A stretch of 47,678 bases of DNA from Escherichia phage Lambda_ev058: sequence record LR597651. The stretch is one strand, 5' to 3'. This document shows positions 1 to 47,678 of this stretch, piece after piece. The notes beneath the pieces were generated by a model, which was not told where the DNA came from, made no database searches, and saw nothing but the letters and a program-made list of their open reading frames with translations. The position numbers were made by a program, and so were the translations under genes. Each line of letters starts with the position of its first letter. Position 1 is the first letter of the stretch.

Positions 1-146
1 GGTTTAAGGTGTTTCCGTTCTTCTTCGTCGTAACTTAATGTATTTATTTAAAATACCCCCTGAAAAGAAAGGAAACGACAGGTGCTGAAAGCGAGCTTTT
101 TGGCCTCTGTCGTTTCCTTTCTCTGTTTTTGTCCGTGGAATGAGCA
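1..146. promoter_or_regulatory. cos: cosB-like terminase-binding region (R3, IHF-like A/T tract, R2, R1); cosN itself lies outside the window
   Basis: Direct: three copies of a CGTTTCC(T)TTCT-type element at 11-27, 66-80 (inverted) and 108-123 around an A/T-rich tract at 31-57, immediately upstream of nu1. The layout matches lambda cosB (established). Window base 1 corresponds to about lambda position 45 (recalled). Confidence 0.7.
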
Positions 147-666
147 ATGGAAGTCAACAAAAAGCAGCTGGCTGACATTTTCGGTGCGAGTATCCGTACC
201 ATTCAGAACTGGCAGGAACAGGGAATGCCCGTTCTGCGAGGCGGTGGCAAGGGTAATGAGGTGCTTTATGACTCTGCCGCCGTCATAAAATGGTATGCCG
301 AAAGGGATTCTGAAATTGAGAACGAAAAGCTGCGCCGGGAGGTTGAAGAACTGCGGCAGGCCAGCGAGGCAGATCTCCAGCCAGGAACTATTGAGTACGA
401 ACGCCATCGACTTACGCGTGCGCAGGCCGACGCACAGGAACTGAAGAATGCCAGAGACTCCGCTGAAGTGGTGGAAACCGCATTCTGTACTTTCGTGTTG
501 TCGCGGATCGCAGGTGAAATTGCCAGTATTCTCGACGGGCTCCCCCTGTCGGTGCAGCGGCGTTTTCCGGAACTGGAAAACCGACATGTTGATTTCCTGA
601 AACGGGATATCATCAAAGCCATGAACAAAGCAGCCGCGCTGGATGAACTGATACCGGGGTTGCTGA

Positions 667-692
<26 letters not shown>
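147..692 (+). CDS. nu1: terminase small subunit
   Basis: 181-aa ORF; the translation matches lambda gpNu1 along its length as recalled (MEVNKKQLADIFGASIRTIQNWQEQGMPV...). First gene after cosB and overlaps the start of A. Confidence 0.95.
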
Positions 693-4373
<3,681 letters not shown>

Positions 4374-21619: not shown

Positions 21620-21710
21620 AAAAAGGTGAGCTGTATATGCAACGGAGGAAGAAACCCCGTTGCTGGAAGCCAGGAAAAAGTATCGGGTGTTGCTGTCCTC
21701 GGATGTTGTG

Positions 21711-22568
21711 CTAATTGGGTGATAACAGATCCTGTGTATGGGAGTTTCCCTTTTTGCGTGCGTTGATGCTGGTAACGGCAAACGTCATGATGAACAAAAC
21801 CGCGAATAAGACGACAATCGTCGGAGCTGGTGCGCTGTCGATAAAAAAGGACAACCAGACACCAGTCATTGACACTATTACCGATATGCCAGTCGCCAGT
21901 AGGAGCGCAATATGAAAGCGTTGTGTCAGGAGTACCGCAATGGCGCCAGGCGCAATGAGCAGAGAAATGGAGAGAATGATACCTACCGCTTTCAGCGTCG
22001 CCACAATGGTCAGAGAGACCATGCACAGCAGCCCATAATGCAGCCATCTCGTATGCAAACCGCTTACCTGCGCCTGTTGATAATCAAAGCTGAACAGCAA
22101 AAAATCCCGCCATTTTACGCTAATAACAAGTGTAACCAGCCCGGCAATAATCATCGTCTGGATTATATCGCCGATGGTTATCCCGAGCATGTCGCCGAAA
22201 AGAATATGGTCAAGATGTACGTCTGGTTTGACTGCAATATACAAGATCAGACCTGCGGCAAACATGCCAGAAAAAACAATCCCCATCACTGTATCTTGCT
22301 TGATTCGGCTGTTGTCTTTCAGGTATCCCGTCGCCACCGCGCAGAATACTCCGGCGACGAATGCCCCTGTAGCCAAAGGTAACCCCAGAATCCAGGCAAG
22401 CACGATGCCAGGAAAAACCGCATGACTCATCGCGTCACCCATCAGTGCCCAACCTTTCAGGACCAGAAAGACCGACAGCAGCGCACAGGGTATGGAAACT
22501 ACCAGTGAAATCAGCAGTGCGTGACTCATAAAGGTGAACTGCAGTGGCTCCAGTAATAATGCCATCAT
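21711..22568 (-). CDS. sitD: Mn/Fe ABC transporter permease SitD
   Basis: 285-aa polytopic membrane protein of the MntC/ZnuB permease type; last gene of a four-gene operon with overlapping stop/start codons. Confidence 0.85.
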   Translation of the reverse strand: MMALLLEPLQFTFMSHALLISLVVSIPCALLSVFLVLKGWALMGDAMSHAVFPGIVLAWILGLPLATGAFVAGVFCAVATGYLKDNSRIKQDTVMGIVFSGMFAAGLILYIAVKPDVHLDHILFGDMLGITIGDIIQTMIIAGLVTLVISVKWRDFLLFSFDYQQAQVSGLHTRWLHYGLLCMVSLTIVATLKAVGIILSISLLIAPGAIAVLLTQRFHIALLLATGISVIVSMTGVWLSFFIDSAPAPTIVVLFAVLFIMTFAVTSINARKKGNSHTQDLLSPN

Positions 22569-23422
22569 GAGCGATCCTCCAGCGCCTTATGCGCACGCCG
22601 ACGATTTGCCAAAAGCCCATGGGTGGGCGCAAAGACAAATGCTAAAAGAAACAGCAGTGTCTGCGCCACCACGATGATTCCACCTGTCGCGCCGTCCAGA
22701 AAGTAACTGACCCACGCGCCGAGGAAACTGGTTACACTGCCAATAGTTACAGCAATCATGAGCAGGCGGGGAAAACGATCGGTTAACAACCATGCTGTTG
22801 CACCGGGAGTCACCACCAGACAGATCACCAGAAAGGCACCAACCGTTTGCAGCGCCGCAACGGTCGAAACCGACAGCAGGGTGAAGAAGAGGAGTTTTAA
22901 TCTGCCCGGATGCAATCCAATAGCACGGGCGTGATTCTCGTCGAAAAAGGTCACCATAAGATCTTTCCATTTGAAAAAAAGCACGATGATCGAGAGAATG
23001 CCAATGATAGTGAGTTGCAGGATATCCGCCGGATCGATTGCCAGAATATTGCCCAGGACGATGGTCTGAATGTTCACAGATGTCGGGTTCAATGACACCA
23101 TAAACAGCCCCAGGCCAAAAAAGGACGAGAAGATCAGACCGATGATGGCATCTTCTTTTAAGCGGGTGCGTTGGTTAAGAAACAGCATGCTGCCCGCAGC
23201 CAGTCCGCCGGAAAAGAAGGCTCCCAGAGAAAACGGAAGCCCCAGCATATATGCCCCCGCAACACCCGGGACAATAGAGTGCGACAACGCATCGCCAATC
23301 AGCGACCAGCCTTTTAGCATCAGATAGCATGACAGGAAAGCGCAGAGACCGCCGACCATCGCCGAGACCCACATCGCATTGAGCATATATTCATAGCTGA
23401 AGGGTTCCAGTAGCACGTTCAT
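22565..23422 (-). CDS. sitC: Mn/Fe ABC transporter permease SitC
   Basis: 285-aa permease paralogous to SitD; start overlaps the sitB stop. Confidence 0.85.
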
Positions 23423-24246
23423 CTTTCTTCCCTCTGCACCGCTGACGGTCGATGAGCCACAAAAGGGCGTTCATCGTCAGTAATAATGCTTTCTTCCGAG
23501 CCGTTAAGTGTGACATGGCGCAGTACGCCGCTAAAAGCCAGCTCTAGGTTCTCGGCTGTAAAAGTGGTGTCTGTCGGCCCGCTTGCCAGGACGGTGCCTT
23601 TGACCATGACCGTATAATCGCAAAATGTCGTGACGGATCCGAGATTGTGTGTTGAGACAAGCATCGTTTTGCCTTCCGCGCGTAACTCCCTCAACAGGCT
23701 GATGATTTTGGCTTCGGTTTTCACATCAACGCCAGTAAAAGGTTCATCCAGCAGGATCACATCACCCTGCTGTGCAATCGCTCTCGCCAGAAAGACGCGT
23801 TTCTTTTGTCCACCGGAAAGCTCGCCGATTTGTCGATGGCGAAAATTCACCATATCGACACGTTCCAGCGCATCGGTGACAATTTGACGATCCCTCTTTT
23901 TGGCGATACGCAACATACCCATATGCCCATAGCGGCCCATCATCACCACATCTTCCACCAGTACAGGAAATGACCAGTCAACATCTTCTGACTGAGGGAC
24001 GTAGGCAACCAGGTTTTTCTGTAACGCCTGTCGCGTGGGAATACCCAGAACAGATATCTTTCCGCTGGTCAGACGCACAAATCCCATAATCGCTTTAAAC
24101 AACGTCGATTTTCCGGAACCGTTTACCCCAACCAGAGCGGCAATAGATCCACTTGGTACTGTGAAGGATGCATCGCGCAGTGCTGTGTGCCCGTTACGCC
24201 AGGTGACAGTAACATCATTAACGACAATGCCTGCAGATTGCATCAT
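23419..24246 (-). CDS. sitB: Mn/Fe ABC transporter ATP-binding protein SitB
   Basis: 275-aa protein with Walker A (GVNGSGKST), ABC signature (LSGGQ) and Walker B (ILLDEP). Confidence 0.9.
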
Positions 24247-25160
24247 TATTTCTCCCTTTTCCCAGCTTTAATTCCCTGTACCAGCGTACTGGTAGTAACC
24301 TTAAGAAGGTCGATATACGTCGGTACCGGGCCGTTTTCTGTGCTCAGGGAATCGACATAGAGCACACCGCCGTAGTGTGCGCCGGTTTCACGCGCAACCT
24401 GACGCGCTGGTTTATCGGAAATCGTACTCTCGCTAAAGACTGCCGGGATATGATTTTTCTTAACTATATCAACAACCTTACGTACCTGCTGCGGTGTTCC
24501 TTGTTGATCGGCATTAATCGGCCACAGATAAAGCTCTTTTAGCCCCAAATCGCGTGCGAGATAAGAAAAAGCCCCTTCACTGGTGACCATCCATCGCTGA
24601 TTCTCAGGGAGTTCCGTAATCTGCTTACGCAGGGGGGCAAGGGTTTGGGTAATCTTGGCTTTATAAGTATCGGCATTGCGTTGGTAGGTTTGTGCATTTG
24701 CCGGATCGTATTTTATCAACGCATCACGAATATTATCGACGTAAATCAGAGCATTATCTGGCGACATCCATGCATGGGGGTTAGGTTTGCCCTCATAGGG
24801 TCCTTCGGTGATCCCTACAGGCGTCACACCCGAAGAGACAATTACTTCTGGAACCCCATTGAGATGCTGGTAAAAGCGTTGGAACCACAATTCCAGATTC
24901 ATACCATTGGCGAGAATCAGTTGTGCCCCCTGCGCACGTTTAATATCGCCAGGGGTAGGCTGATACTCATGAATTTCTGCACCAGGCTTGGTTATGGATG
25001 AGACTTCTGCAGCATCTCCCGCCACGTTTTTGGCCATATCCGCGATGATGGTAAATGTTGTAATGACCTTGAATTTTTCAGTTGCACTTGCCTGAAATGC
25101 GATCGAGCAGGTGAGTGCGAGCCCCCCCAAGAGCATGGTTACTTTTTTTATCGAGTGCAT
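24246..25160 (-). CDS. sitA: periplasmic Mn/Fe-binding protein SitA
   Basis: 304-aa protein with an N-terminal signal peptide and a TroA/cluster-9 solute-binding fold signature; first gene of the operon. Confidence 0.9.
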
Positions 25161-25192
25161 AATTTAGTACCTATAGTGAGCAAAATTAGAAC

Positions 25193-25214
25193 AAACATAG
25201 CAACGGCTATGTTT
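25193..25214. promoter_or_regulatory. MntR box upstream of sitA
   Basis: Direct: perfect inverted repeat AAACATAGC-AACG-GCTATGTTT. It matches the E. coli/Salmonella MntR operator (established). Confidence 0.75.
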
Positions 25215-26618: not shown

Positions 26619-27084
26619 CAAGTAATACGGCGAGCGATATGACGTGCCATGGGATATCCGCACCCAGCAGCATGTTGTCTCCACGATGTCCGCAGTTCGC
26701 TCATAATAGACATTCACTACAGTTATAGTAGAAGGTATGCATGCTGCTGAGTGGGGAAAGTGTGAAAGAAAAGAAGACAGCTGCTTTGTTTGTCGTCACG
26801 TTTATCTTCATTGGCTATGCAAGTCGTAATACAAGGCGGGACAAAACTGAGACACATAAGGCCTCGCAATGGCTTGCAAGGCCACACATGTATTGAGATG
26901 TTAATAAAATGTAGACTTGTAATTTTGATATAAATGGTAGAGAAAATCTTTCCCCAAAATAAAAACGAACGTCAATGAAATCAAACGGTTGAATAAAGTT
27001 GATTTTGGCTAATACAAAGACAAGAAAATAATATTTATGATTAAATATCAGCGAGTTGAATACATAATTTTTATATACTGTTAC

Positions 27085-27242
27085 GCCATATGGGCTGGAC
27101 TGAAGCCGCAGACCTGATTGTTAAAGGTATGGAAGGCGCAATCAACGCCAAGACTGTAACCTATGACTTCGAACGTCTGATGGAAGGCGCTAAATTGCTG
27201 AAATGTAGCGAGTTTGGCGACGCGATCATCAAGAACATGTAA
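27085..27242 (+). other. icd: phage-borne copy of the 3' end of icd (attP core region)
   Basis: Reading frame ends ...[52 protein letters not shown]-stop, i.e. the C-terminus of isocitrate dehydrogenase. Phage 21 and e14 integrate at the icd 3' end and carry a replacement copy (established). Confidence 0.8.
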
Positions 27243-27355: not shown

Positions 27356-28498
27356 CTATGCTGTTTTGATATCTACGATAACCCAGTCTTTACCACGATC
27401 ATCATTGTATCGGTCGGTCATTTTTCTGGATTTATGGCCTAACAACTTTTGCGTATCCAGACCCTGTTCCCGATATAACCGTTCTGACAGAGATCGCTGC
27501 TCATGAAATGTGGGCGCAGTTCCTTGCTCCCATTTTATGCCACATTTTTCCCTGGCCTTTTTAAAAGCCGTTGTCAGAGTATTTGCAGAAACCTGGTCTC
27601 CTCTGTTTGCTTGAGAGGTAGTGTGACGGTAATGGACCAGATATTTACTAACAACAGCATCCCTGCACTGAGATATAACTTCACGAAGGGTAATATTCAG
27701 AGCATCGCATTTCAGGTTAAGCGGAATAGCAAGTTTTGAACCGGTTTTTTCCTGAGTAATGTGCAACATGTCGTCCCAGATATCAGAGAATTTCAAATTG
27801 CAGATATCACCTAAACGTTGTCCAGTAACAAGAGCAAGTAGCATGCCGCATTTTAAATAGGGCTGCCGTCTGCTTACGCTTTCAAATATTGCCTGCCATT
27901 CGGGCAGTGACAATCTTTGGCGGTTTACTCGATTTCGCGGTTGTTTTGTTGCCTGCGCTGGGTTAAATCCTGGCGGAACATGTCCTGCGTGTTGTGCTTC
28001 TTTGAAGACGTCGATCAACACCATTCTCACGACTTGCGCCATCCTGTTATGACCTTCAGCCTTTACAGCATCAATTATTTCGGCAATATCAAGTGCGGTA
28101 ATATCCTTGAGGTGTTGCATTCCACAATGCTCACGGAAAAGACGAATGGGTTTGCCTTTTTGCCGATAGGAGTTGGGTCTTAGTTCATTATGTTGCAGCC
28201 TGTCCTCCTGGATAGAAATATATTTATCAAGCCATTCTGTCACCGTAATTTCTGAGCGCCTGCCTTTCATTCTTTCCAGACGCTCATTGACGCTTAATAT
28301 TTGTCGGGTACGTTGTTCAGCAATAATGGTATTTGCTTCAGTAGCAACTTGTTTTGCTTCATTCTCATCAGTTCCTAAGCTATGAAAACGACCGGATAGT
28401 GGATGTTTGTATTGCCAATATACCTTTCCGGTTCGCTTATCTAATTTGCAATATAAATTGGGTATAGAGATTTTGTGAGATCGGGGTCTAGCAGCCAT
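27356..28498 (-). CDS. int: tyrosine integrase (lambda Int family, icd-targeting type)
   Basis: 380-aa ORF; C-terminus ...LLGHKSRKMTDRYNDDRGKDW resembles the lambda Int catalytic tail (LGHKS...Y..DDRG). Adjacent to xis and attP. Confidence 0.9.
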   Translation of the reverse strand: MAARPRSHKISIPNLYCKLDKRTGKVYWQYKHPLSGRFHSLGTDENEAKQVATEANTIIAEQRTRQILSVNERLERMKGRRSEITVTEWLDKYISIQEDRLQHNELRPNSYRQKGKPIRLFREHCGMQHLKDITALDIAEIIDAVKAEGHNRMAQVVRMVLIDVFKEAQHAGHVPPGFNPAQATKQPRNRVNRQRLSLPEWQAIFESVSRRQPYLKCGMLLALVTGQRLGDICNLKFSDIWDDMLHITQEKTGSKLAIPLNLKCDALNITLREVISQCRDAVVSKYLVHYRHTTSQANRGDQVSANTLTTAFKKAREKCGIKWEQGTAPTFHEQRSLSERLYREQGLDTQKLLGHKSRKMTDRYNDDRGKDWVIVDIKTA

Positions 28499-38690: not shown

Positions 38691-39401
38691 GTGCACAGAA
38701 AACCCCCAGCTAGGCTGGGGGTTCCGGAAAGCTTTCAGCTTTGAGCCAGTTATTAAAACCCCTTTTGATTTGTTAAAACACCTTGCGGTCTGGCAACTGC
38801 AAGTGTCAAACAAGAAATCAAAAGGGGGTCCCAATGGGGAACGAAAAGAGCTTAGCGCACACCCGATGGAACTGTAAATATCACATAGTTTTTGCGCCAA
38901 AATACCGAAGACAGGTGTTCTACAGAGAGAAGCGTAGAGCAATAGGCAGTATTTTGAGAAAGCTGTGTGAGTGGAAAAGCGTACGGATTCTGGAAGCTGA
39001 ATGCTGTGCAGATCATATCCATATGCTTGTGGAGATCCCGCCTAAAATGAGCGTATCCGGGTTTATGGGATATCTGAAAGGGAAAAGCAGTCTGATGCTT
39101 TACGAGCAGTTTGGTGATTTGAAATTCAAATACAGGAACAGGGAGTTCTGGTGCAGAGGGTACTACGTCGATACAGTGGGTAAGAACACGGCGAAGATAC
39201 AGGATTACATAAAGCACCAGCTTGAAGAGGATAAAATGGGAGAGCAGTTATCGATTCCCTATCCGGGCAGCCCGTTTACGGGCCGTAAGTAACGAAGTTG
39301 GATGCAAATGTCAGATCGTGTGCGCCTGTTAGGGCGCGGCTGGTAAGAGAGCCTTATAGGCGCATTTGAAAAACCTCCGGCTATGCCGGAGGATATTTAT
39401 T
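38691..39401 (+). mobile_element. IS200 insertion sequence (IS200/IS605 family)
   Basis: About 711 bp inserted in the ren-ninB spacer. Left-end stem-loop CCCCCAGC-TAG-GCTGGGGG (38702-38720), tnpA, and right-end hairpin CCTCCGG-CTATG-CCGGAGG (39374-39392). Boundaries inferred by comparison with the recalled lambda spacer; accurate to about 5 bp. Confidence 0.75.
38834..39292 (+). CDS. tnpA: IS200 transposase TnpA (Y1 HUH)
   Basis: 152-aa product from MGNEKSLAHTRWNCKYHIVFAPKYRRQ..., with the HxH motif (ADHIHML) and catalytic Tyr region; closely matches IS200 TnpA as recalled. Confidence 0.9.
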   Translation: MGNEKSLAHTRWNCKYHIVFAPKYRRQVFYREKRRAIGSILRKLCEWKSVRILEAECCADHIHMLVEIPPKMSVSGFMGYLKGKSSLMLYEQFGDLKFKYRNREFWCRGYYVDTVGKNTAKIQDYIKHQLEEDKMGEQLSIPYPGSPFTGRK

Positions 39402-39418
39402 TGGGGGAGAGGGAAGTC

Positions 39419-39859
39419 ATGAAAAAACTAACCTTTGAAATTCGATCTCCAGCACATCAGCAAAACGCTATTCACGCAGTACAGCAAATCCTTCCAGACC
39501 CAACCAAACCAATCGTAGTAACCATTCAGGAACGCAACCGCAGCTTAGACCAAAACAGGAAGCTATGGGCCTGCTTAGGTGACGTCTCTCGTCAGGTTGA
39601 ATGGCATGGTCGCTGGCTGGATGCAGAAAGCTGGAAGTGTGTGTTTACCGCAGCATTAAAGCAGCAGGATGTTGTTCCTAACCTTGCCGGGAATGGCTTT
39701 GTGGTAATAGGCCAGTCAACCAGCAGGATGCGTGTAGGCGAATTTGCGGAGCTATTAGAGCTTATACAGGCATTCGGTACAGAGCGTGGCGTTAAGTGGT
39801 CAGACGAAGCGAGACTGGCTCTGGAGTGGAAAGCGAGATGGGGAGATCGGGCTGCATGA
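39419..39859 (+). CDS. ninB: NinB recombination protein
   Basis: 146-aa product from MKKLTFEIRSPAHQQNAIHAVQQILPDPTKP..., matching lambda NinB as recalled. Confidence 0.9.
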   Translation: MKKLTFEIRSPAHQQNAIHAVQQILPDPTKPIVVTIQERNRSLDQNRKLWACLGDVSRQVEWHGRWLDAESWKCVFTAALKQQDVVPNLAGNGFVVIGQSTSRMRVGEFAELLELIQAFGTERGVKWSDEARLALEWKARWGDRAA

Positions 39860-40383
39860 CTATCAAATCAAATACGCCAGCACACGACAAGGACTGCTGG
39901 CAAACGCCGCTTTGGCTTTTTGATGCACTGGATATTGAGTTTGGATTCTGGCTGGATTCGGCAGCGAGCGACAAAAATGCTCTGTGTGCTCACTGGCTAA
40001 CTGAGGCCGACGACGCGCTCAATTCTGAGTGGGTAAGCCACGGTGCAATCTGGAATAACCCACCGTACAGCAATATCAGGCCGTGGGTGGAAAAAGCCGC
40101 TGAGCAGTGCATACAACAGCGACAGACGGTAGTTATGCTTGTGCCAGAGGATATGTCAGTCGGATGGTTCAGCAAGGCTCTGGAGAGTGTCGACGAAGTT
40201 CGCATTATCACTGATGGACGGATTAATTTTATCGAACCATCGACAGGGCTGGAGAAGAAGGGAAACAGCAAAGGCTCCATGCTGCTGATTTGGCGACCGT
40301 TCATCAGTCCTCGACGGATGTTTACTACCGTATCCAAAGCGGCATTGATGGCGATCGGGCAGGGCGTCAGGAGGGCGGCATGA
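39856..40383 (+). CDS. phage DNA N6-adenine methyltransferase (Dam-like, orphan)
   Basis: 175-aa product from [26 protein letters not shown]..., with the catalytic NPPY motif (WNNPPYS); start overlaps the ninB stop. Occupies the position of lambda ninC. Confidence 0.8.
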
Positions 40384-40556
40384 GGCGACAGCGACGAAGT
40401 TTCACCGACATCATCTGCGAAAACTGCAAATACCTTCCAACGAAACGCTCCAGAAATAAACGCAAGCCAATCCCAAAAGAATCTGACGTAAAAACCTTCA
40501 ATTACACAGCTCACCTGTGGGATATCCGGTGGCTAAGATATCGTGCGAGGAAATGA
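40380..40556 (+). CDS. ninE: NinE
   Basis: 58-aa product [52 protein letters not shown]..., matching lambda NinE as recalled. Confidence 0.85.
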
Positions 40557-40900
40557 CAATGGATTATTCACAGTTAAGTGATTTTGAAATTAACAGAATG
40601 GTAGGAGACATAATTTTTAAAGGCCTTTGGGCAAGTAAACCGGAAACATCAGGGAATAACACCAACAAATGGTATTACGGAAATGCTGATACAACTTTTG
40701 AGCCATTAAATCATTTGCCTGACTACTGCAATGATCCGAGCGCTTCATGGCCGATTATTGAGAAATACAGGATTTCTATCTTAGACCAGTTAACTGAATG
40801 GTGTGTGGATGCAAAAGGCGTAAGCCCAATATTTGATACCAGACCTCTCCGCGCCGCCATTATTGTCTTTCTCCTGATGCAGGAGGCCAATAATGCTTAG
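40553..40900 (+). CDS. hypothetical protein (nin region)
   Basis: 115-aa product from [19 protein letters not shown]...; AT-rich; no recognised homology. Confidence 0.5.
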
Positions 40901-41087
40901 CCCATCTCAATCCCTTCAATACCTGAAAGGAAGCATAGAGCGGGCTTCAATGTGCACAGAGTGGATTCTATCTAGGTTTAGCGCATACAGAAGATTGCCG
41001 GTAAAGGGCATGCCAAGCAAGTCGATGCTGCATATGCAAAAGAATGCGCGCGGGAAGGTATGGCGAGAACGCAGGTTATCTGGCTGA
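40893..41087 (+). CDS. ninF: NinF-like protein with divergent C-terminus
   Basis: 64-aa ORF; the first 10 residues [10 protein letters not shown] match the lambda NinF N-terminus as recalled, but the remainder lacks the Cys motifs. Confidence 0.4.
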
Positions 41088-41106
41088 AAGAGGGGGTAAT
41101 TAAGGC

Positions 41107-41469
41107 GTGAATACTTACCACATCACACTACCCTGGCCTCCGAGCAATAATCGCTATTATCGCCATAATCGCGGGCGCACGCACGTCAGCGCAGAGGGGC
41201 AGGCATACCGCGATAACGTCGCCCGAATCATTAAAAACGCAATGCTGGATATCGGCCTGGCGATGCCTGTGAAAATCCGCATTGAGTGCCACATGCCGGA
41301 TCGCCGTCGCCGTGACCTGGATAATCTGCAAAAAGCCGCTTTTGACGCACTCACCAAAGCAGGTTTCTGGCTGGATGATGCTCAGGTCGTTGATTACCGC
41401 GTTGTGAAGATGCCTGTTACCAAAGGTGGGAGGCTGGAATTGACCATCACCGAAATGGGGAATGAATGA
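41107..41469 (+). CDS. rusA: Holliday junction resolvase RusA
   Basis: 120-aa ORF matching E. coli DLP12 RusA as recalled ([34 protein letters not shown]...). Confidence 0.95.
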
Positions 41470-41606
41470 TGTTTGAGTTTTATATGGCAGAACGTCTTCG
41501 CCACCGCTGGGTGCGTCTGCGCTTATATCGTTTCCCCGGTTCTGTTTTGACCGATTACCGAATACTGAAGAATTACGCCAAAACACTGACAGGAGCAGGA
41601 GTATGA
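41466..41606 (+). CDS. ylcG: YlcG-like small protein
   Basis: 46-aa ORF below the track cut-off, translated by hand as [46 protein letters not shown]; overlaps the rusA stop; matches DLP12 YlcG as recalled. Confidence 0.7.
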
Positions 41607-41691
41607 AGTCAGAGATAACAATCAACTAATACTGTTTTGCTGATTTTTGCTTGTAATTGGCGTTCTGGTCTGATTTTTGTGGAGTAAGTTG

Positions 41692-42069
41692 ATGCGTGAT
41701 ATTCAGATGGTTCTTGAGCGTTGGGGAGCGTGGGCGGCTAATAATCATGAAGATGTGACCTGGTCGTCCATTGCCGCCGGTTTTAAGGGATTAATTCCTT
41801 CAAAAGTAAAATCTCGCCCGCAATGTTGTGACGATGACGCGATGATCATTTGCGGGTGCATGGCCCGTCTGAAAAATAACAACAGCGATTTGCATGATTT
41901 GTTAGTGGACTATTATGTCGGCGGCATGACTTTTATGGCGCTTGCGCGTAAGCATGGTAGATCTGATTGTTGGATTGGCAGGATGCTCCAAAAAGCTGAG
42001 GGCGTAGTGGAGGGCATGCTGATGGTGTTGGATCTCAGATTGGAGATGGATGCTGATTGTTTGAGATAA
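41692..42069 (+). CDS. Q: late gene antiterminator Q (phage 82 / DLP12 QuuD type)
   Basis: 125-aa product from [33 protein letters not shown]..., matching the Q82-type antiterminator as recalled. Confidence 0.9.
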
Positions 42070-42168
42070 TTAAAGGAAAAGTTGCTGTCTGGTTATCATT
42101 AGACTAATGTTTCAAATGTTAGAATCGCAACGTAGTTATGATCATATAACAGCTTGTTCCCTGATTTA

Positions 42169-42198
42169 GCCAGCCTCCCCAAAGGCTGGTTTTTTTTC
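42169..42198 (+). terminator. tR'-like intrinsic terminator downstream of pR' (Q target)
   Basis: Direct: GCCAGCCT-CCCCAAA-AGGCTGG stem followed by an 8-T run, about 100 bp downstream of Q. Confidence 0.6.
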
Positions 42199-42225
42199 TA
42201 ATAAGTATCAATCCGGTTAGGTATT

Positions 42226-42750
42226 TTATTGTTTGACCCATAATAGTTCATTGACATTGAATCCCAATTTTTGAGCAGTACGCACATAGTCTGCTTTTAC
42301 ATTATCTGGAATAGTTGGAGTCCGTGCCAGAATCCATAGGTATTCTCTGTTCGGACCACTGACAAGAGCATACTTATACTCATCATCCAGTTTGATTACA
42401 TTATAGCCACCATAGAAGGGGCCAAAAAACGAAACCTTCAACGCTGCAGTTGTATTATCTCCTGTAAAGTATGCTTTACCTTCGCTCTCGCTCCATTTGT
42501 TTTTCGTTGGGTCATATCCACGATTAAGTACACTAATCCCTCCGTCGTTCCGTTTCCCATAAGTGGCGCTGACCTGTTCCAGACCACGTTCAAATCGGTT
42601 CTCAAGCCGAGCTATTTCATACCATTTTCCGAGGTAGCGGTTGGTGTCAAAATTTGTAATCGGCTGCACACCTTTAGGTGGTGTCGGGGCCTTACATGCT
42701 ATCAGAGTGAAAGAGAGTGCAATGCCAGTCAACACAGGCCATAACTTCAT
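42226..42750 (-). CDS. blc: outer-membrane lipocalin lipoprotein (Blc-like)
   Basis: 174-aa ORF with lipobox LIAC after a signal peptide; lipocalin motifs (RYLGKWYEIAR, KVSFFGPFYGGYNVI, EYLWILARTPT) matching E. coli Blc as recalled. Confidence 0.85.
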   Translation of the reverse strand: MKLWPVLTGIALSFTLIACKAPTPPKGVQPITNFDTNRYLGKWYEIARLENRFERGLEQVSATYGKRNDGGISVLNRGYDPTKNKWSESEGKAYFTGDNTTAALKVSFFGPFYGGYNVIKLDDEYKYALVSGPNREYLWILARTPTIPDNVKADYVRTAQKLGFNVNELLWVKQ

Positions 42751-42942
42751 AATATATCCTGTACTTTTGATAGTTGAGAGTAAGTATTAAAGATAGATGA
42801 TTACTACCGATCACCTAAAGAACTTTCCTACTATATTAGGAATAGTCCATAACAAAAAAATTGTCAGTGATGACGGCAGAAAGGCAGTTTAGGTCGTGTA
42901 CTACACTGTTAACCTGTTAATGAATTAGTCAAGGGGTAGGCA

Positions 42943-43902
42943 ATGATAAAAAAACCTGTCGTTGGGATCAGTGGTTGTTTGGCCGGTTCTTCTGTCCGTT
43001 TTGATGGTGGTCACAAAAGAGCTAGCTTTTTAATGGACAAATTACTGGAATGGGTAACATTCAAACCAGTATGTCCGGAAATGGCTATAGGGCTTCCAGT
43101 TCCGCGTCCTGCTCTACGTCTTGTTCGCTCGGCGCAAGGAAATATACGGATGTGTTTCAGCCACGACCAGAATGAGGATGTTACAGAGAAAATGACAGAG
43201 TTTAGTCGTTCTTATCTTGACAAATTAAAGGATGTATCGGGATTTGTGGTTTGTGCAAAATCTCCTAGCTGTGGTATGGAACGCGTGCGTGTATATGATG
43301 AAAATGGTAATCGTGGTCGTAAAGATGGAGTGGGACTATTTACGAGCACGTTGATGGAAAGGTTTTCCTGGCTACCGGTTGAAGAGGATGGGCGACTACA
43401 TGATCCAGTGCTTCGTGAAAACTTTGTTGAAAGAGTATTTGCTTTACATGAGCTCAATCATCTTTATAAAGCGAAATTATCAAGAAGGGAATTATTAGCT
43501 TTTCATAGCCGTTATAAGCTTCAGTTGTTGGCGCATAGCCAGGCCGGTTATAAAGAGATGGGGCCATTTGTGGCTGCAATACATGAGTGGGCAGACCTTG
43601 AATCATACTTTGAGGTGTATCGTGAGAAGCTGATGGCGATTCTCAGAAAACCTGCATCACGTAAAAATCACACGAATGTGCTGATGCATATACAGGGATA
43701 TTTTAGTAACTGCTTAAATACACGTCAGCGTAAAGAGTTGAGCGATGTTATACTTAACTATCGAGCTGGCACGCTACCTCTTCTTGCGCCATTAACTTTG
43801 CTGAAGCATTACTTGGCAGAGTATCCTGATGATTATTTGCTTATACAGAATTACTTCCACCCCTATCCTGATGAACTGGCTCTAAGACTCTTGGTGAACT
43901 AG
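42943..43902 (+). CDS. DUF523-DUF1722 protein (YbgA/TudS-like; putative Fe-S thiouracil or 4-thiouridine desulfidase)
   Basis: 319-aa ORF with conserved Cys at roughly 12, 44 and 105-110 (GISGCLAG, KPVCPE, VCAKSPSCG) in the N-terminal half and a YbgA-like C-terminal half. Family assignment is from memory. Confidence 0.55.
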   Translation: MIKKPVVGISGCLAGSSVRFDGGHKRASFLMDKLLEWVTFKPVCPEMAIGLPVPRPALRLVRSAQGNIRMCFSHDQNEDVTEKMTEFSRSYLDKLKDVSGFVVCAKSPSCGMERVRVYDENGNRGRKDGVGLFTSTLMERFSWLPVEEDGRLHDPVLRENFVERVFALHELNHLYKAKLSRRELLAFHSRYKLQLLAHSQAGYKEMGPFVAAIHEWADLESYFEVYREKLMAILRKPASRKNHTNVLMHIQGYFSNCLNTRQRKELSDVILNYRAGTLPLLAPLTLLKHYLAEYPDDYLLIQNYFHPYPDELALRLLVN

Positions 43903-44211
43903 GCGTTTGGAATGCACCAACAAGATGATTTTCTCCTTAGAGAATGTTTACAATCGTAAAAACTTCACTATGATATCTATAGTTGTACAGTTTGTAAAAA
44001 AATTCGGTTCATGCTTAAGGTAATGTTAATATGTTAATTAATGATTAATAATCAAGCAAGCCAAAAATAGTTCTGTTTAATCTAGTATTACATAAATATT
44101 TTAAAGAAAATATCAAAGTTCATGATGATATAATGAGATTTTTCTCATTGAAAATATGGCAATTTTAATATTTCCACCTATACTTACTTAACTCAAATCT
44201 AATTATGTCAG

Positions 44212-44952
44212 GTGGATGGTATGCCATGCATATGTTCTATCATTTTGGTTTTGAACTCGTTTGATATCCGGCTTGGTAAAGAAAAAATCTCTCTAAAAAA
44301 AGGAAGTGTTGTTGCTATAGAATACAATTTAAAAGTTTTCTTTTCTTCAAATAAAGATAATATAATGATCGTGGATATTGAAGAGAAAACAGTTAATGAC
44401 TTCTTTAAAAACAATACACTCTCACCTTTTTCTGTAAGAAGATTTTATTCAGCATACTTGATAGTAAACTGTACAGACTATTCATTGTTAAAGAACTTGA
44501 TAGGTTGCTTGAATTGTGATGGTGAAACTACGGCTGTAGTTAAAAATTCAATATTATTTGCATGTCTTGCTATTTTATCCTCGGAAAAAATGTTTCAGAG
44601 TTTTTTGTTTGGGTGTCTTAATAGTTTAGGAAGCAAAGTTAAGGCTATTATTCACTCGGACATATCTGCAGCATGGAGACTTTGTGATATTTCTTCAAGA
44701 CTATGTCTGAGTGAAAGTTTGTTAAAAAGAAAACTAAAACACGAAGGCTTATCATTTAGCAAATTAATTCTTGAAGAACGAATGGTGATGGCTGAAAGGT
44801 TATTAAGCTACAATTTCTATCCTGTTGGGAAAGTTGCTAAAATATGTGGTTATGAAAGCGCGTCATATTTTATAAGTGTTTTCAGAAGATATTTTGGTGT
44901 TCCCCCCCATGAATATTCATCAAGATTTTTTTTAGAAAAAGGCAAGATGTAA
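44212..44952 (+). CDS. AraC/XylS-family transcriptional regulator (AT-rich; Rns/PerA/PatE-like)
   Basis: 246-aa ORF with a C-terminal double-HTH AraC signature (KVAKICGYESASYFISVFRRYFGVPPHEY); strongly AT-rich gene and upstream region. Start codon uncertain. Confidence 0.75.
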   Translation: MDGMPCICSIILVLNSFDIRLGKEKISLKKGSVVAIEYNLKVFFSSNKDNIMIVDIEEKTVNDFFKNNTLSPFSVRRFYSAYLIVNCTDYSLLKNLIGCLNCDGETTAVVKNSILFACLAILSSEKMFQSFLFGCLNSLGSKVKAIIHSDISAAWRLCDISSRLCLSESLLKRKLKHEGLSFSKLILEERMVMAERLLSYNFYPVGKVAKICGYESASYFISVFRRYFGVPPHEYSSRFFLEKGKM

Positions 44953-45013
44953 CGTGATGCGTTTTGATGATTTTGTAATTTTCATATTTGATGATTATAT
45001 GATGCTTTCAGCT

Positions 45014-45044
45014 ACGCCAGAATAATCGCTGGCGTTTTTCTTTT
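45014..45044 (+). terminator. intrinsic terminator after the AraC-family gene
   Basis: Direct: CGCCAG-AATAAT-CGCTGGCG stem followed by TTTTTCTTTT. Confidence 0.55.
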
Positions 45045-45119
45045 CTAATGTAACTTCTGTATCTTTCCCTCTTTCATTCCAAACCGTGTACACCATCCGT
45101 TATTCGCGGAGGTGAGGCT

Positions 45120-45335
45120 ATGAAATCCATGGACAAGTTAACAACGGGCATTGCCTACGGCACCTCTGCAGGCAGTGCTGGCTACTGGTTTTTACAGTGG
45201 CTTGATCAGGTCAGTCCGTCACAGTGGGCGGCGATTGGAGTGCTTGGAAGCCTTGTGTTGGGTTTTCTCACTTATCTGACAAACCTTTATTTCAAGATTA
45301 AAGAAGATAAGCGTAAGGCTGCGAGAGGTGAATAA
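45120..45335 (+). CDS. S: holin, phage-21-type pinholin (class II, dual start)
   Basis: 71-aa [53 protein letters not shown]... with the M1-K2-S3-M4 dual-start motif and two TMDs; matches S21 as recalled. Confidence 0.9.
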
Positions 45336-45832
45336 TGTCGCCATCATTACGCAAGGCTGTAGCAGCTGCTATTGGTGGTGGGGCTGTTGCCATAGCGTCT
45401 GTGCTCATCACTGGTCCGAGTGGTGACGATGGTCTGGAAGGTGTCAGCTACATACCATATAAAGATATTGTTGGTGTATGGACTGTATGTCACGGGCATA
45501 CAGGAAAAGACATCATGCTCGGTAAAACGTATACCAAAGCAGAATGCAAAGCACTCTTGAATAAAGACCTTGCCACTGTCGCCAGACAAATTAACCCGTA
45601 CATCAAAGTCGATATACCGGAAACAACGCGCGGCGCTCTTTACTCATTCGTTTACAACGTGGGTGCTGGCAATTTCAGAACATCGACGCTTCTTCGCAAA
45701 ATAAACCAGGGCGATATCAAAGGCGCATGTGATCAGTTACGTCGCTGGACATATGCTGGCGGTAAGCAATGGAAAGGTCTCATGACTCGTCGTGAGATTG
45801 AGCGTGAAATCTGTTTGTGGGGTCAGCAATGA
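45335..45832 (+). CDS. R: SAR endolysin (phage-21-type lysozyme)
   Basis: 165-aa ORF with an N-terminal signal-anchor-release segment ([20 protein letters not shown]) and T4-lysozyme-like E..D..T catalytic spacing; matches R21 as recalled. Confidence 0.9.
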
Positions 45833-46290
45833 ACAGAGTAACCGCGATTATCTCCGCTCTGGTTATCTGCATCATCGTCTGCCTGTCATGGGCTGTTAAT
45901 CATTACCGTGATAACGCCATTACCTACAAAGCCCAGCGCGACAAAAATGCCAGAGAACTGAAGCTGGCGAACGCGGCAATTACTGACATGCAGATGCGTC
46001 AGCGTGATGTTGCTGCGCTCGATGCAAAATACACGAAGGAGTTAGCTGATGCGAAAGCTGAAAATGATGCTCTGCGTGATGATGTTGCCGCTGGTCGTCG
46101 TCGGTTGCACATCAAAGCAGTCTGTCAGTCAGTGCGTGAAGCCACCACCGCCTCCGGCGTGGATAATGCAGCCTCCCCCCGACTGGCAGACACCGCTGAA
46201 CGGGATTATTTCACCCTCAGAGAGAGGCTGATCACGATGCAAAAACAACTGGAAGGAACCCAGAAGTATATTAATGAGCAGTGCAGATAG
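45829..46290 (+). CDS. Rz: spanin inner-membrane subunit Rz
   Basis: 153-aa product from [29 protein letters not shown]..., matching lambda Rz as recalled; start overlaps the R stop. Confidence 0.9.
46049..46231 (+). CDS. Rz1: spanin outer-membrane lipoprotein Rz1 (embedded in Rz, +1 frame)
   Basis: 60-aa ORF entirely within Rz, with lipobox VVGC and a proline-rich segment ([15 protein letters not shown]). Confidence 0.85.
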
Positions 46291-46321
46291 AGCTGCCCAT
46301 ATCGATGGGCAACTCATGCAA

Positions 46322-46615
46322 TTATTGTGAGCAATAGACACGCGCTTCCAGCGGAGTATAAATGCCTAAAGTAATAAAACCGAGCAATCCATTTACGAAT
46401 GTTTGCTGGGTTTCTGTTTTAACAACATTTTCTGCGCCGCCACAAATTTTGGCTGCATCAACAGTTTTCTCCTGTCCAATTCCCGAAACGAAGAAGTGAT
46501 GGGTGATGGTTTCCTTTGGTGTTACTGCTGTCGGTTTGTTTCCAACAGTAAACGTCTGTTGAGCACATCCTGTAATAAGCATTGCCAGAGCGGCAGAAAA
46601 CAACATTTTTTTCAT
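46322..46615 (-). CDS. bor: Bor lipoprotein (serum resistance)
   Basis: 97-aa product from MKKMLFSAALAMLITGCAQQTFTV..., with lipobox ITGC; matches lambda Bor as recalled. The track ORF begins 16 codons upstream. Confidence 0.9.
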   Translation of the reverse strand: MKKMLFSAALAMLITGCAQQTFTVGNKPTAVTPKETITHHFFVSGIGQEKTVDAAKICGGAENVVKTETQQTFVNGLLGFITLGIYTPLEARVYCSQ

Positions 46616-46974
46616 CTTATTATCCTGCATTGTTAAAAACGGCAGAATCCTATGTGACAACAATTAAACGATAGTTAAATGGATTGATGAAAATTAAAAC
46701 TATATAGGTGGATGCTCAGCCTATTGGAGGAGGGGGGCACTCAGAATCCTGTGGAATGAAATAAACCGCTCTTTCTGTCCATTACCCTTTTAGCTGCGCT
46801 GTATCGTCGCCGTATTCCCGCATTAACCATGACCGTAGCCCGACGGGGAATTCCTTCTGCGTGAGTGTGCGGGAATAATCAAAAACGATGCACACCGGGT
46901 TTTACTGTGCTGACAGACGCAGGGTTACCCTCATAGTCGCTTTTCCGGTGCGATGGTGGAAGAAACCGGGATGT

Positions 46975-47169
46975 TTATTCATCATCACTTTGGATTGATG
47001 TACATGCTCTCTTTTCTGACGTTAGTCTCCGACGGCAGGCTTCAATGACCCAGGCTGAGAAATTCCCAGACCCTTTTTGCTCAAGAGCGATGTTAATTTG
47101 TTCAATCATTTGGTTAGGAAAGCGGATGTTGCGGGTTGTTGTTCTGCGGGTTCTGTTCTTAGTTGACAT
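46975..47169 (-). CDS. hypothetical protein (YlcI/DUF3950-like)
   Basis: 64-aa basic ORF MSTKNRTRRTTTRNIRFPNQMIEQINIALEQKGSGNFSAWVIEACRRRL...; found near the right end of lambdoid genomes. Confidence 0.55.
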   Translation of the reverse strand: MSTKNRTRRTTTRNIRFPNQMIEQINIALEQKGSGNFSAWVIEACRRRLTSEKRACTSIQSDDE

Positions 47170-47326
47170 GAGGTTGCCCCGTATTCAGTGTCGCTGATTT
47201 GTATTGTCTGAAGTTGTTTTTACGTTAAGTTGATGCAGATCAATTAATACGATACCTGCGTCATAATTGATTATTTGACGTGGTTTGATGGCGTAGATGC
47301 ACGTTGTGACATGTAGATGATAATTA

Positions 47327-47678
47327 CTGTCTCTTATACACATCTCCGAGCCCACGAGACTAAGGCGAATCTCGTATGCCGTCTTCTGCTTGAAAAAAAA
47401 AATTGTCACGTACAAAGAAAGTAGCATTCCAATGGTCTATCAGGTAATCTTTAACAAAACGTTGAATACCAAAAGCGCCTACACCATCACTTGCTAAGCG
47501 GCTGTTGAACCACTTCTCACTACGGAGATGTGTAGAAGAGAAAGAATAGGATTGAGGTAACTGGGCTTGATTATAATGGTAAGATCGATAGTGTGATAAG
47601 ATTTTTTTTTTTTCAAGCAGAAGACGGCATACGAGATTCGCCTTAGTCTCGTGGGCTCGGAGATGTGTATAAGAGACA
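47327..47678. other. sequencing artefact: Illumina Nextera/P7 adapter sequences in inverted orientation flanking a ~200-bp unrelated insert
   Basis: Direct: 47327-47392 reads CTGTCTCTTATACACATCTCCGAGCCCACGAGAC + TAAGGCGA + ATCTCGTATGCCGTCTTCTGCTTG, then a 10-A run. 47614-47678 is its reverse complement (CAAGCAGAAGACGGCATACGAGAT...AGATGTGTATAAGAGACA), preceded by a T-run. These are the Tn5 mosaic end, an i7 index and the P7 sequence. Confidence 0.95.

Follow-up and report, generated by a model that had tools for sequence, protein, structure and literature searches.

The window analysed here is the whole 47,678 nt of sequence record LR597651, Escherichia phage Lambda_ev058, and its left end carries the cosB elements of a cos site of the lambda type, followed by the two terminase genes:

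1 to 8, plus strand: last 8 nt of the I2 spacer (lambda nt 44-51), from the alignment to lambda and to the complete sibling phage Lambda_2E9
9 to 24, plus strand: cosB R3, a binding site of the small terminase subunit (Nu1), from motif match and lambda alignment
36 to 48, minus strand: I1, a match to the IHF-site consensus, inside the A/T tract between R3 and R2
65 to 80, minus strand: cosB R2, inverted relative to R3 and R1, from motif match and lambda alignment
108 to 123, plus strand: cosB R1, from motif match and lambda alignment
147 to 692, plus strand: nu1, terminase small subunit (Pfam Phage_Nu1, E = 8.8e-100)
667 to 2592, plus strand: A, terminase large subunit, an open reading frame of 641 aa, equal in length to lambda gpA

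The R motif GTTTCCKTTCTY, a 12-mer, matches three times in the whole 47.7-kb window, namely at 11-22 (+), 65-76 (-) and 112-123 (+). By chance 0.04 matches are expected, and three matches were reached in 0 of 100 shuffles. The putative IHF site at 36-48 (-), AATAAATACATTA, agrees with the consensus WATCAANNNNTTR at 12 of 13 positions. In the published architecture of cosB the sites R3, R2 and R1 are oriented +, - and +, with an IHF site between R3 and R2 (PMC4669245). The window matches this order, including the IHF site, and nu1 lies directly downstream; cosB is intact. R3 has a single substitution compared to lambda (lambda C53T), and the base pairs 56, 58 and 59 of this site, which are named critical (PMC4669245), are the same as in lambda. 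Over window nt 1-146 (lambda nt 44-189) there are 4-5 substitutions relative to lambda, one of them just upstream of nu1. The encoded Nu1 is identical to lambda Nu1 at 181 of 182 positions and possesses the winged-helix DNA-binding domain of Nu1. We also note a 1-nt deletion relative to lambda at window 96-97 (lambda nt 138-139), between R2 and R1; the R2-R1 spacing is 1 bp shorter than in lambda, and the closest siblings match its flanks at 100%.

A preliminary description of this DNA had recognized a cosB-like region with R3, an A/T tract, R2 and R1 within positions 1-146. This was accurate, and all elements could be located. The statement that the window opens inside cosB is right in that the cosB elements are all there, but to be exact the first 8 nt still belong to the end of I2, and R3 begins after them. 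The missing cosN is borne out, since the window starts at lambda nt 44. In the alignments window nt 1 corresponds to nt 44 both of lambda (NC_001416) and of Lambda_2E9. Measured against Lambda_2E9, the loss at the left end amounts to 43 nt, that is, the 12-nt cohesive end GGGCGGCGACCT and 31 nt of the I2 spacer.

At the right end the phage sequence is followed by DNA of other origin:

47285 to 47326, plus strand: the last 42 phage bases recovered, ending 42 nt before the right terminus and upstream of cosQ
47327 to 47392, plus strand: complete Nextera read-through adapter, composed in this order of the 19-nt Tn5 mosaic end CTGTCTCTTATACACATCT, the i7 adapter CCGAGCCCACGAGAC, the index TAAGGCGA and P7 ATCTCGTATGCCGTCTTCTGCTTG
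47393 to 47402, plus strand: A10 run after the end of P7
47403 to 47524, plus strand: 122-nt fragment of a nicotinamide phosphoribosyltransferase gene from a Felix-O1-like phage, 95.9% identical to VpaE1_ev035
47523 to 47544, minus strand: the mosaic end again, in degenerate form (22 nt, 91% match)
47545 to 47601, no strand assigned: junk of 57 nt, no match
47602 to 47613, plus strand: T12 run
47614 to 47678, minus strand: the same adapter inverted, 1 nt short at the contig end

The phage sequence stops at position 47326, equivalent to nt 46660 of the 46,702 nt of Lambda_2E9, and the homology to all relatives ends there; the final 352 nt of the window (47327-47678) are non-phage. The loss at the right end is 42 nt, which in Lambda_2E9 read TTATCATTTTGTGGGTCCTTTCCGGCGATCCGACAGGTTACG and include cosQ (GGGTCCT). 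In the prophage of E. coli 118UI (NZ_CP032515) exactly 85 bp lie between window nt 47326 and window nt 1. These 85 bp are identical to the last 42 nt plus the first 43 nt of Lambda_2E9, contain GGGTCCT as well as GGGCGGCGACCT, and the same 85 bp separate the window ends in a near-identical sibling phage. The 12-nt 5′ cohesive end is absent from the window and present at the matching place in the siblings and the prophage; likewise GGGTCCT is absent from the window and falls within the missing 42 nt of Lambda_2E9 and the prophage. As the siblings and the prophage hold cosN unchanged, the phage has cosN and it is the contig that is truncated, and because complete relatives exist the extent of the truncation can be read exactly as 43 plus 42 nt. 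Nothing beyond the 85 bp is absent, and the centre of the loss is the top-strand nick.

One could suppose that the 85 bp are truly deleted, so that the window represents a genome that is defective or has no cos, or replicative DNA that is not packaged, and the absence of the 85 bp from the window is the one observation in favour of this. However, packaging of the lambda type requires both cosN and cosQ (PMC4669245), the flanks in the window are not joined to each other but lie at the two contig ends, where one of them runs into a Tn5 adapter, and all near-identical siblings as well as the prophage carry the 85 bp unchanged. We consider a true deletion hardly conceivable.

The preliminary description had placed the right end of the sequence just before the cohesive end and had spoken of a symmetric loss of about 45 bp. 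The phage part is indeed 42 nt short, yet the boundary is position 47326 and not the window end; termini are missing at both ends, but the exact values are 43 and 42, and their near-equality is partly a coincidence because the siblings show other terminal offsets. The comparison with the 12-nt lambda cohesive end, which had been proposed there as a check, confirms that siblings and prophage carry GGGCGGCGACCT unchanged.

The tail itself explains the right contig end. The last phage base runs straight into the mosaic end (47326/47327), as in a contig-end artefact. The A10 run at 47393-47402 presumably stems from Illumina reads which continued past the end of the library molecule. The nicotinamide phosphoribosyltransferase fragment at 47403-47524 is carry-over from another library of the same run, and the "ev" in the name of its best match, VpaE1_ev035, fits a shared sequencing run. 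For 47545-47601 no match was found in the phage collection with a 211-nt query (window 47396-47606), of which only nt 8-129 were covered, and the 200-nt insert of the tail has only chance matches of up to 16 nt to the rest of the window. The two adapter copies constitute a 75-nt perfect inverted repeat, with the partner at 47328-47402, around the foreign DNA.

The left end of the window is itself without adapter. In the separately indexed sibling Lambda_ev203, however, the read-1 Nextera adapter ending in TCGGCAGCGTCAGATGTGTATAAGAGACAG is fused to GGTTTAAGG, which is the sequence starting at window nt 1, and a junction at nt 44 would be common to two libraries, that of the window and that of Lambda_ev203. 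The Tn5 target consensus is GNTYWRANC, a 9-bp core with about 10 protected bp on each side (Adey et al., PMC3046479). The core GGTTTAAGG (nt 1-9) agrees with 6 of the 7 specified positions of this consensus; it is the only core with at least 6 of 7 in the first 120 nt, and genome-wide 0.76% of positions score as well. The recurrence of the junction at nt 44 would be explained by this match. The core at the right junction agrees at 3 of 7 positions, and we rejected it as a Tn5 consensus site on this count; site preference would therefore explain the left junction only. Since the footprint of Tn5 permits insertions nearer to an end than 31-42 bp, the values 43 and 42 are contingent and no fixed limit.

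The siblings provide further examples of such ends. The first 1.5 kb of the window are 99.5% identical to lambda and 100% identical to lambda-like phages from the infant gut. The latter, called siblings throughout, are Lambda_2E9, Lambda_4B5, 1H12 and Lambda_ev087, ev110, ev203, ev245 and ev066 (records LR5958xx and LR5976xx) of Mathieu et al. (2020). On the left they lack 0, 9, 13 or 23 nt; on the right the shortest stops about 17 nt before the terminus and the longest runs 3-4 nt beyond the nick. In part these ends may be the product of trimming and not raw Tn5 junctions, since the contigs were trimmed and re-oriented by the authors. Lambda_2E9, Lambda_4B5 and Lambda_ev245 contain cos wholly or almost wholly, and several siblings were assembled across cos. 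Tagmentation accordingly does not always lose cos. Nextera adapter is still present in several of the public sibling records, at nt 1-30 of Lambda_ev203 and at the right ends of Lambda_ev087, ev066 and ev110. The index of the adapter in Lambda_ev110 is a different one (CTAGTACG in the orientation read), which indicates separate libraries.

Mathieu et al. prepared crude lysates by PEG precipitation with DNase/RNase treatment, sequenced on a MiSeq and assembled with SPAdes, and they named their phages after the closest relative followed by "ev" and the virome number or by the strain number (PMC6969025). They clipped the tag CTGTCTCTTATACACATCTCCGAGCCCACGAGAC from inside the reads and gave the kit as "Trueseq nano" (PMC6969025). 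This tag starts with the 19-bp mosaic end (Adey et al., PMC3046479) and equals the first 34 nt of the adapter in the window. Despite the kit label the siblings' libraries behave as transposase libraries, the tag being the mosaic end plus the Nextera read-2 adapter. Both the naming by "ev" or strain number and the clipped tag fit Mathieu et al. as the source of the siblings, and the window contig, to go by its sequence, probably derives from the same project. The Danish wastewater study of Olsen et al. was considered as the siblings' source and rejected, since its text is without lambda and a NextSeq was used. The text of Mathieu et al. makes no mention of "IS200" or "cohesive".

Window positions 1-38690 and 39396-47326 align to the siblings at 99.8-100%. 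Between these two blocks, at 38691-39395, lies an IS200-family element of 705 bp, situated between ren and ninB, with its tnpA at 38834-39292 (Pfam Y1_Tnp, E = 3.8e-38). Neither lambda nor the 118UI prophage has this element, and it is likewise missing from the four relatives that were aligned over their full length. It would be an insertion sequence inside an apparently packaged phage genome. The annotated gene order of the siblings is nu1-A...J, tail fibre, sitDCBA, int-xis, recombination, immunity, O-P, nin, Q, lysis and bor, which is the vegetative order of lambda. When this annotation is transferred to the window, the sitABCD operon for an iron/manganese transporter falls at about 21700-25200, between the tail fibre genes and attP.

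Two features in the interior of the window bear on whether the sequence represents packaged or integrated DNA:

27079 to 27242, plus strand: attP region, a copy of the final 164 bp of icd carried by the phage, at which the homology to lysogens starts
27356 to 28498, minus strand: integrase of 380 aa adjoining attP, from its open reading frame and prophage annotation

The phage integrates into icd, whose final 164 bp it brings along as a replacement copy next to int. A query of 1.3 kb upstream of int matches lysogen chromosomes at 100% only from 27079 onward (icd end and int). The prophage order is seen in full in one lysogen, 118UI; in the other listed chromosomes the 100% match begins at 27079 as well. 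In 118UI the order is icd, directly followed by int-xis...Q-lysis-bor-cos-nu1...J-sit, and cos is uninterrupted between ylcI and nohD. The window runs without a break through the attP/icd junction at 27079 and is interrupted at cos, and both contig ends flank cosN. As the homology to lysogens starts at 27079 and the window is contiguous at this point, it is in the non-integrated configuration. A search for the signs of an integrated prophage, host flanks and an order permuted at att, found neither, and the window is without E. coli flank.

These observations also bear on the suggestion that the contig was circular, or came from a prophage, and that its present ends arose by rotation during curation with some over-trimming. 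The authors of the sibling study did remove repeats at contig ends and chose orientation and nt 1 by reference genomes (PMC6969025), and such handling would suit this suggestion. A curated or rotated end would, however, not keep an untrimmed adapter and 286 nt of chimeric junk fused to nt 47326; moreover, the left end coincides with the adapter junction of Lambda_ev203, host flanks are lacking and attP is contiguous. Rotation of a circular or prophage-derived contig is in our view very improbable.

With cos-cut virion DNA as the template, it may be asked whether the cohesive ends were free or annealed at the time of tagmentation. If they were annealed, in nicked circles or concatemers, fragments spanning the two nicks, which are 12 nt apart, would have fallen apart at the 72 C and denaturation steps, and coverage around cos would have been lost although the ends were not free. 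Several siblings would suit such a course. In Lambda_ev087 and Lambda_ev066, which are independent libraries, the mosaic end is joined on exactly 3 nt beyond the top-strand nick, and other siblings start at nt 10, 14 and 24; these ends are closer than the flank of roughly 10 bp which Tn5 needs on a free end (PMC3046479). Furthermore, Lambda_4B5 starts with G followed by GGGCGGCGACCT, so that it has an extra base ahead of lambda nt 1, and it lacks one base at its right end. 1H12 and 2G7a are probably offset in the same manner. The offset of Lambda_4B5 is explained by the rotation of contigs to nt 1 of the reference, and offsets of this type are expected of circular contigs which cross cos and were then rotated (PMC6969025). 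In the window, by contrast, the outermost junctions are 31 and 42 bp away from the ends of the duplex, and no part of it crosses cos. Annealed and free ends look the same in these data, and the template is packaged, cos-cut DNA either way; for the window we hold annealed ends to be rather unlikely and prefer the reading that the template ends would have been free during tagmentation.

As to the siblings' ends themselves, Lambda_ev087, ev066, ev110 and ev245 all end at ...GGTTACG+GGG(C), and the fusion to the mosaic end is found there in Lambda_ev087 and Lambda_ev066 only. A recurrent junction inside the cohesive end suggests either annealed cos or transfer by Tn5 into the 5′ overhang. It is conceivable, although we think it doubtful, that Tn5 libraries of cos phages keep some information on the termini. 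If recurrent junctions of this kind, and the one at nt 44, came about by strand transfer of Tn5 into the 5′ overhang or into annealed and nicked cos, they would be usable to call cohesive ends from Nextera data, and the usual advice that Nextera data say nothing on termini would be contradicted.

On the strength of what is directly observed, namely the coordinates, the junction with the adapter, the sequence of the missing 85 bp and a gene order that is contiguous through attP, we are highly confident that the window is a raw contig, assembled de novo from a Nextera (Tn5) library of packaged, cos-cut virion DNA of a lambda-like temperate phage. The phage belongs to the group of sitABCD-carrying, icd-integrating phages filed under Jouyvirus. 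The preliminary description had read the sequence as linear virion DNA which lost its ends to tagmentation, and this reading gains support from the adapter junction, the Lambda_ev203 junction, the attP order and the lysate protocol of the siblings. That the DNA was packaged and that the attP-containing order is real, also proposed there, agrees with the contiguity at 27079 and with the two ends flanking cosN.

We suggest that the contig ends arose in the following way. Transposase must insert on both sides of a piece of DNA to make it a library fragment, and the piece left outside the last insertion has a single adapter. The extreme ends, which form this terminal stub, therefore cannot be sequenced. 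The outermost usable insertions would have been 43 nt inside the left terminus and 42 nt inside the right one; cosQ, cosN and I2, 85 bp in all, are lost, and cosB is kept. The 85 bp probably had zero coverage, as judged from the assembly. The tail at the right end is an artefact of the assembly graph: as no genomic reads continued there, the assembler went along the adapter read-through into shared adapter k-mers. In this manner it appended the chimeric tail of adapter, poly-A, Felix-O1-like fragment, junk, poly-T and inverted adapter.

The biological importance is small: the contig confirms packaged lambda-type virion DNA in the vegetative gene order. For curation, the 85 bp with cosQ, cosN and I2 can be restored from the siblings, and the 352 nt at 47327-47678, which are adapter and foreign-phage junk, should be removed before the record is annotated or compared.

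In comparison with known systems, the feature is a well-known library and assembly artefact placed on a textbook cos site and not new biology. Nextera/Tn5 libraries lose phage termini, for example those of phages HP1 and Slur09 (PhageTerm authors, PMC5557969). The window agrees with these cases in that a mosaic-end junction sets the contig end, and we see no substantive difference; in the literature looked through for a "50-bp drop at distal ends" with Nextera no such statement was found. With the siblings the window shares the remnants of Nextera adapter at contig ends, and the left junction of Lambda_ev203 is identical. In contrast to the window, the siblings lack the 705-bp insertion of the IS200 family, and the window has lost more of both termini than any of them. 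Compared to lambda, the cosB elements R3 (+), I1, R2 (-) and R1 (+) stand at lambda's positions and the siblings and the prophage carry exactly lambda's GGGCGGCGACCT and GGGTCCT. The cos site of lambda is complete, whereas the window is without cosQ, cosN and most of I2 through truncation. The genome as a whole is mosaic with respect to lambda, with an icd-specific integrase, the sitABCD cargo and different immunity and nin regions, and even the blocks shared with lambda have only about 95-99% identity.
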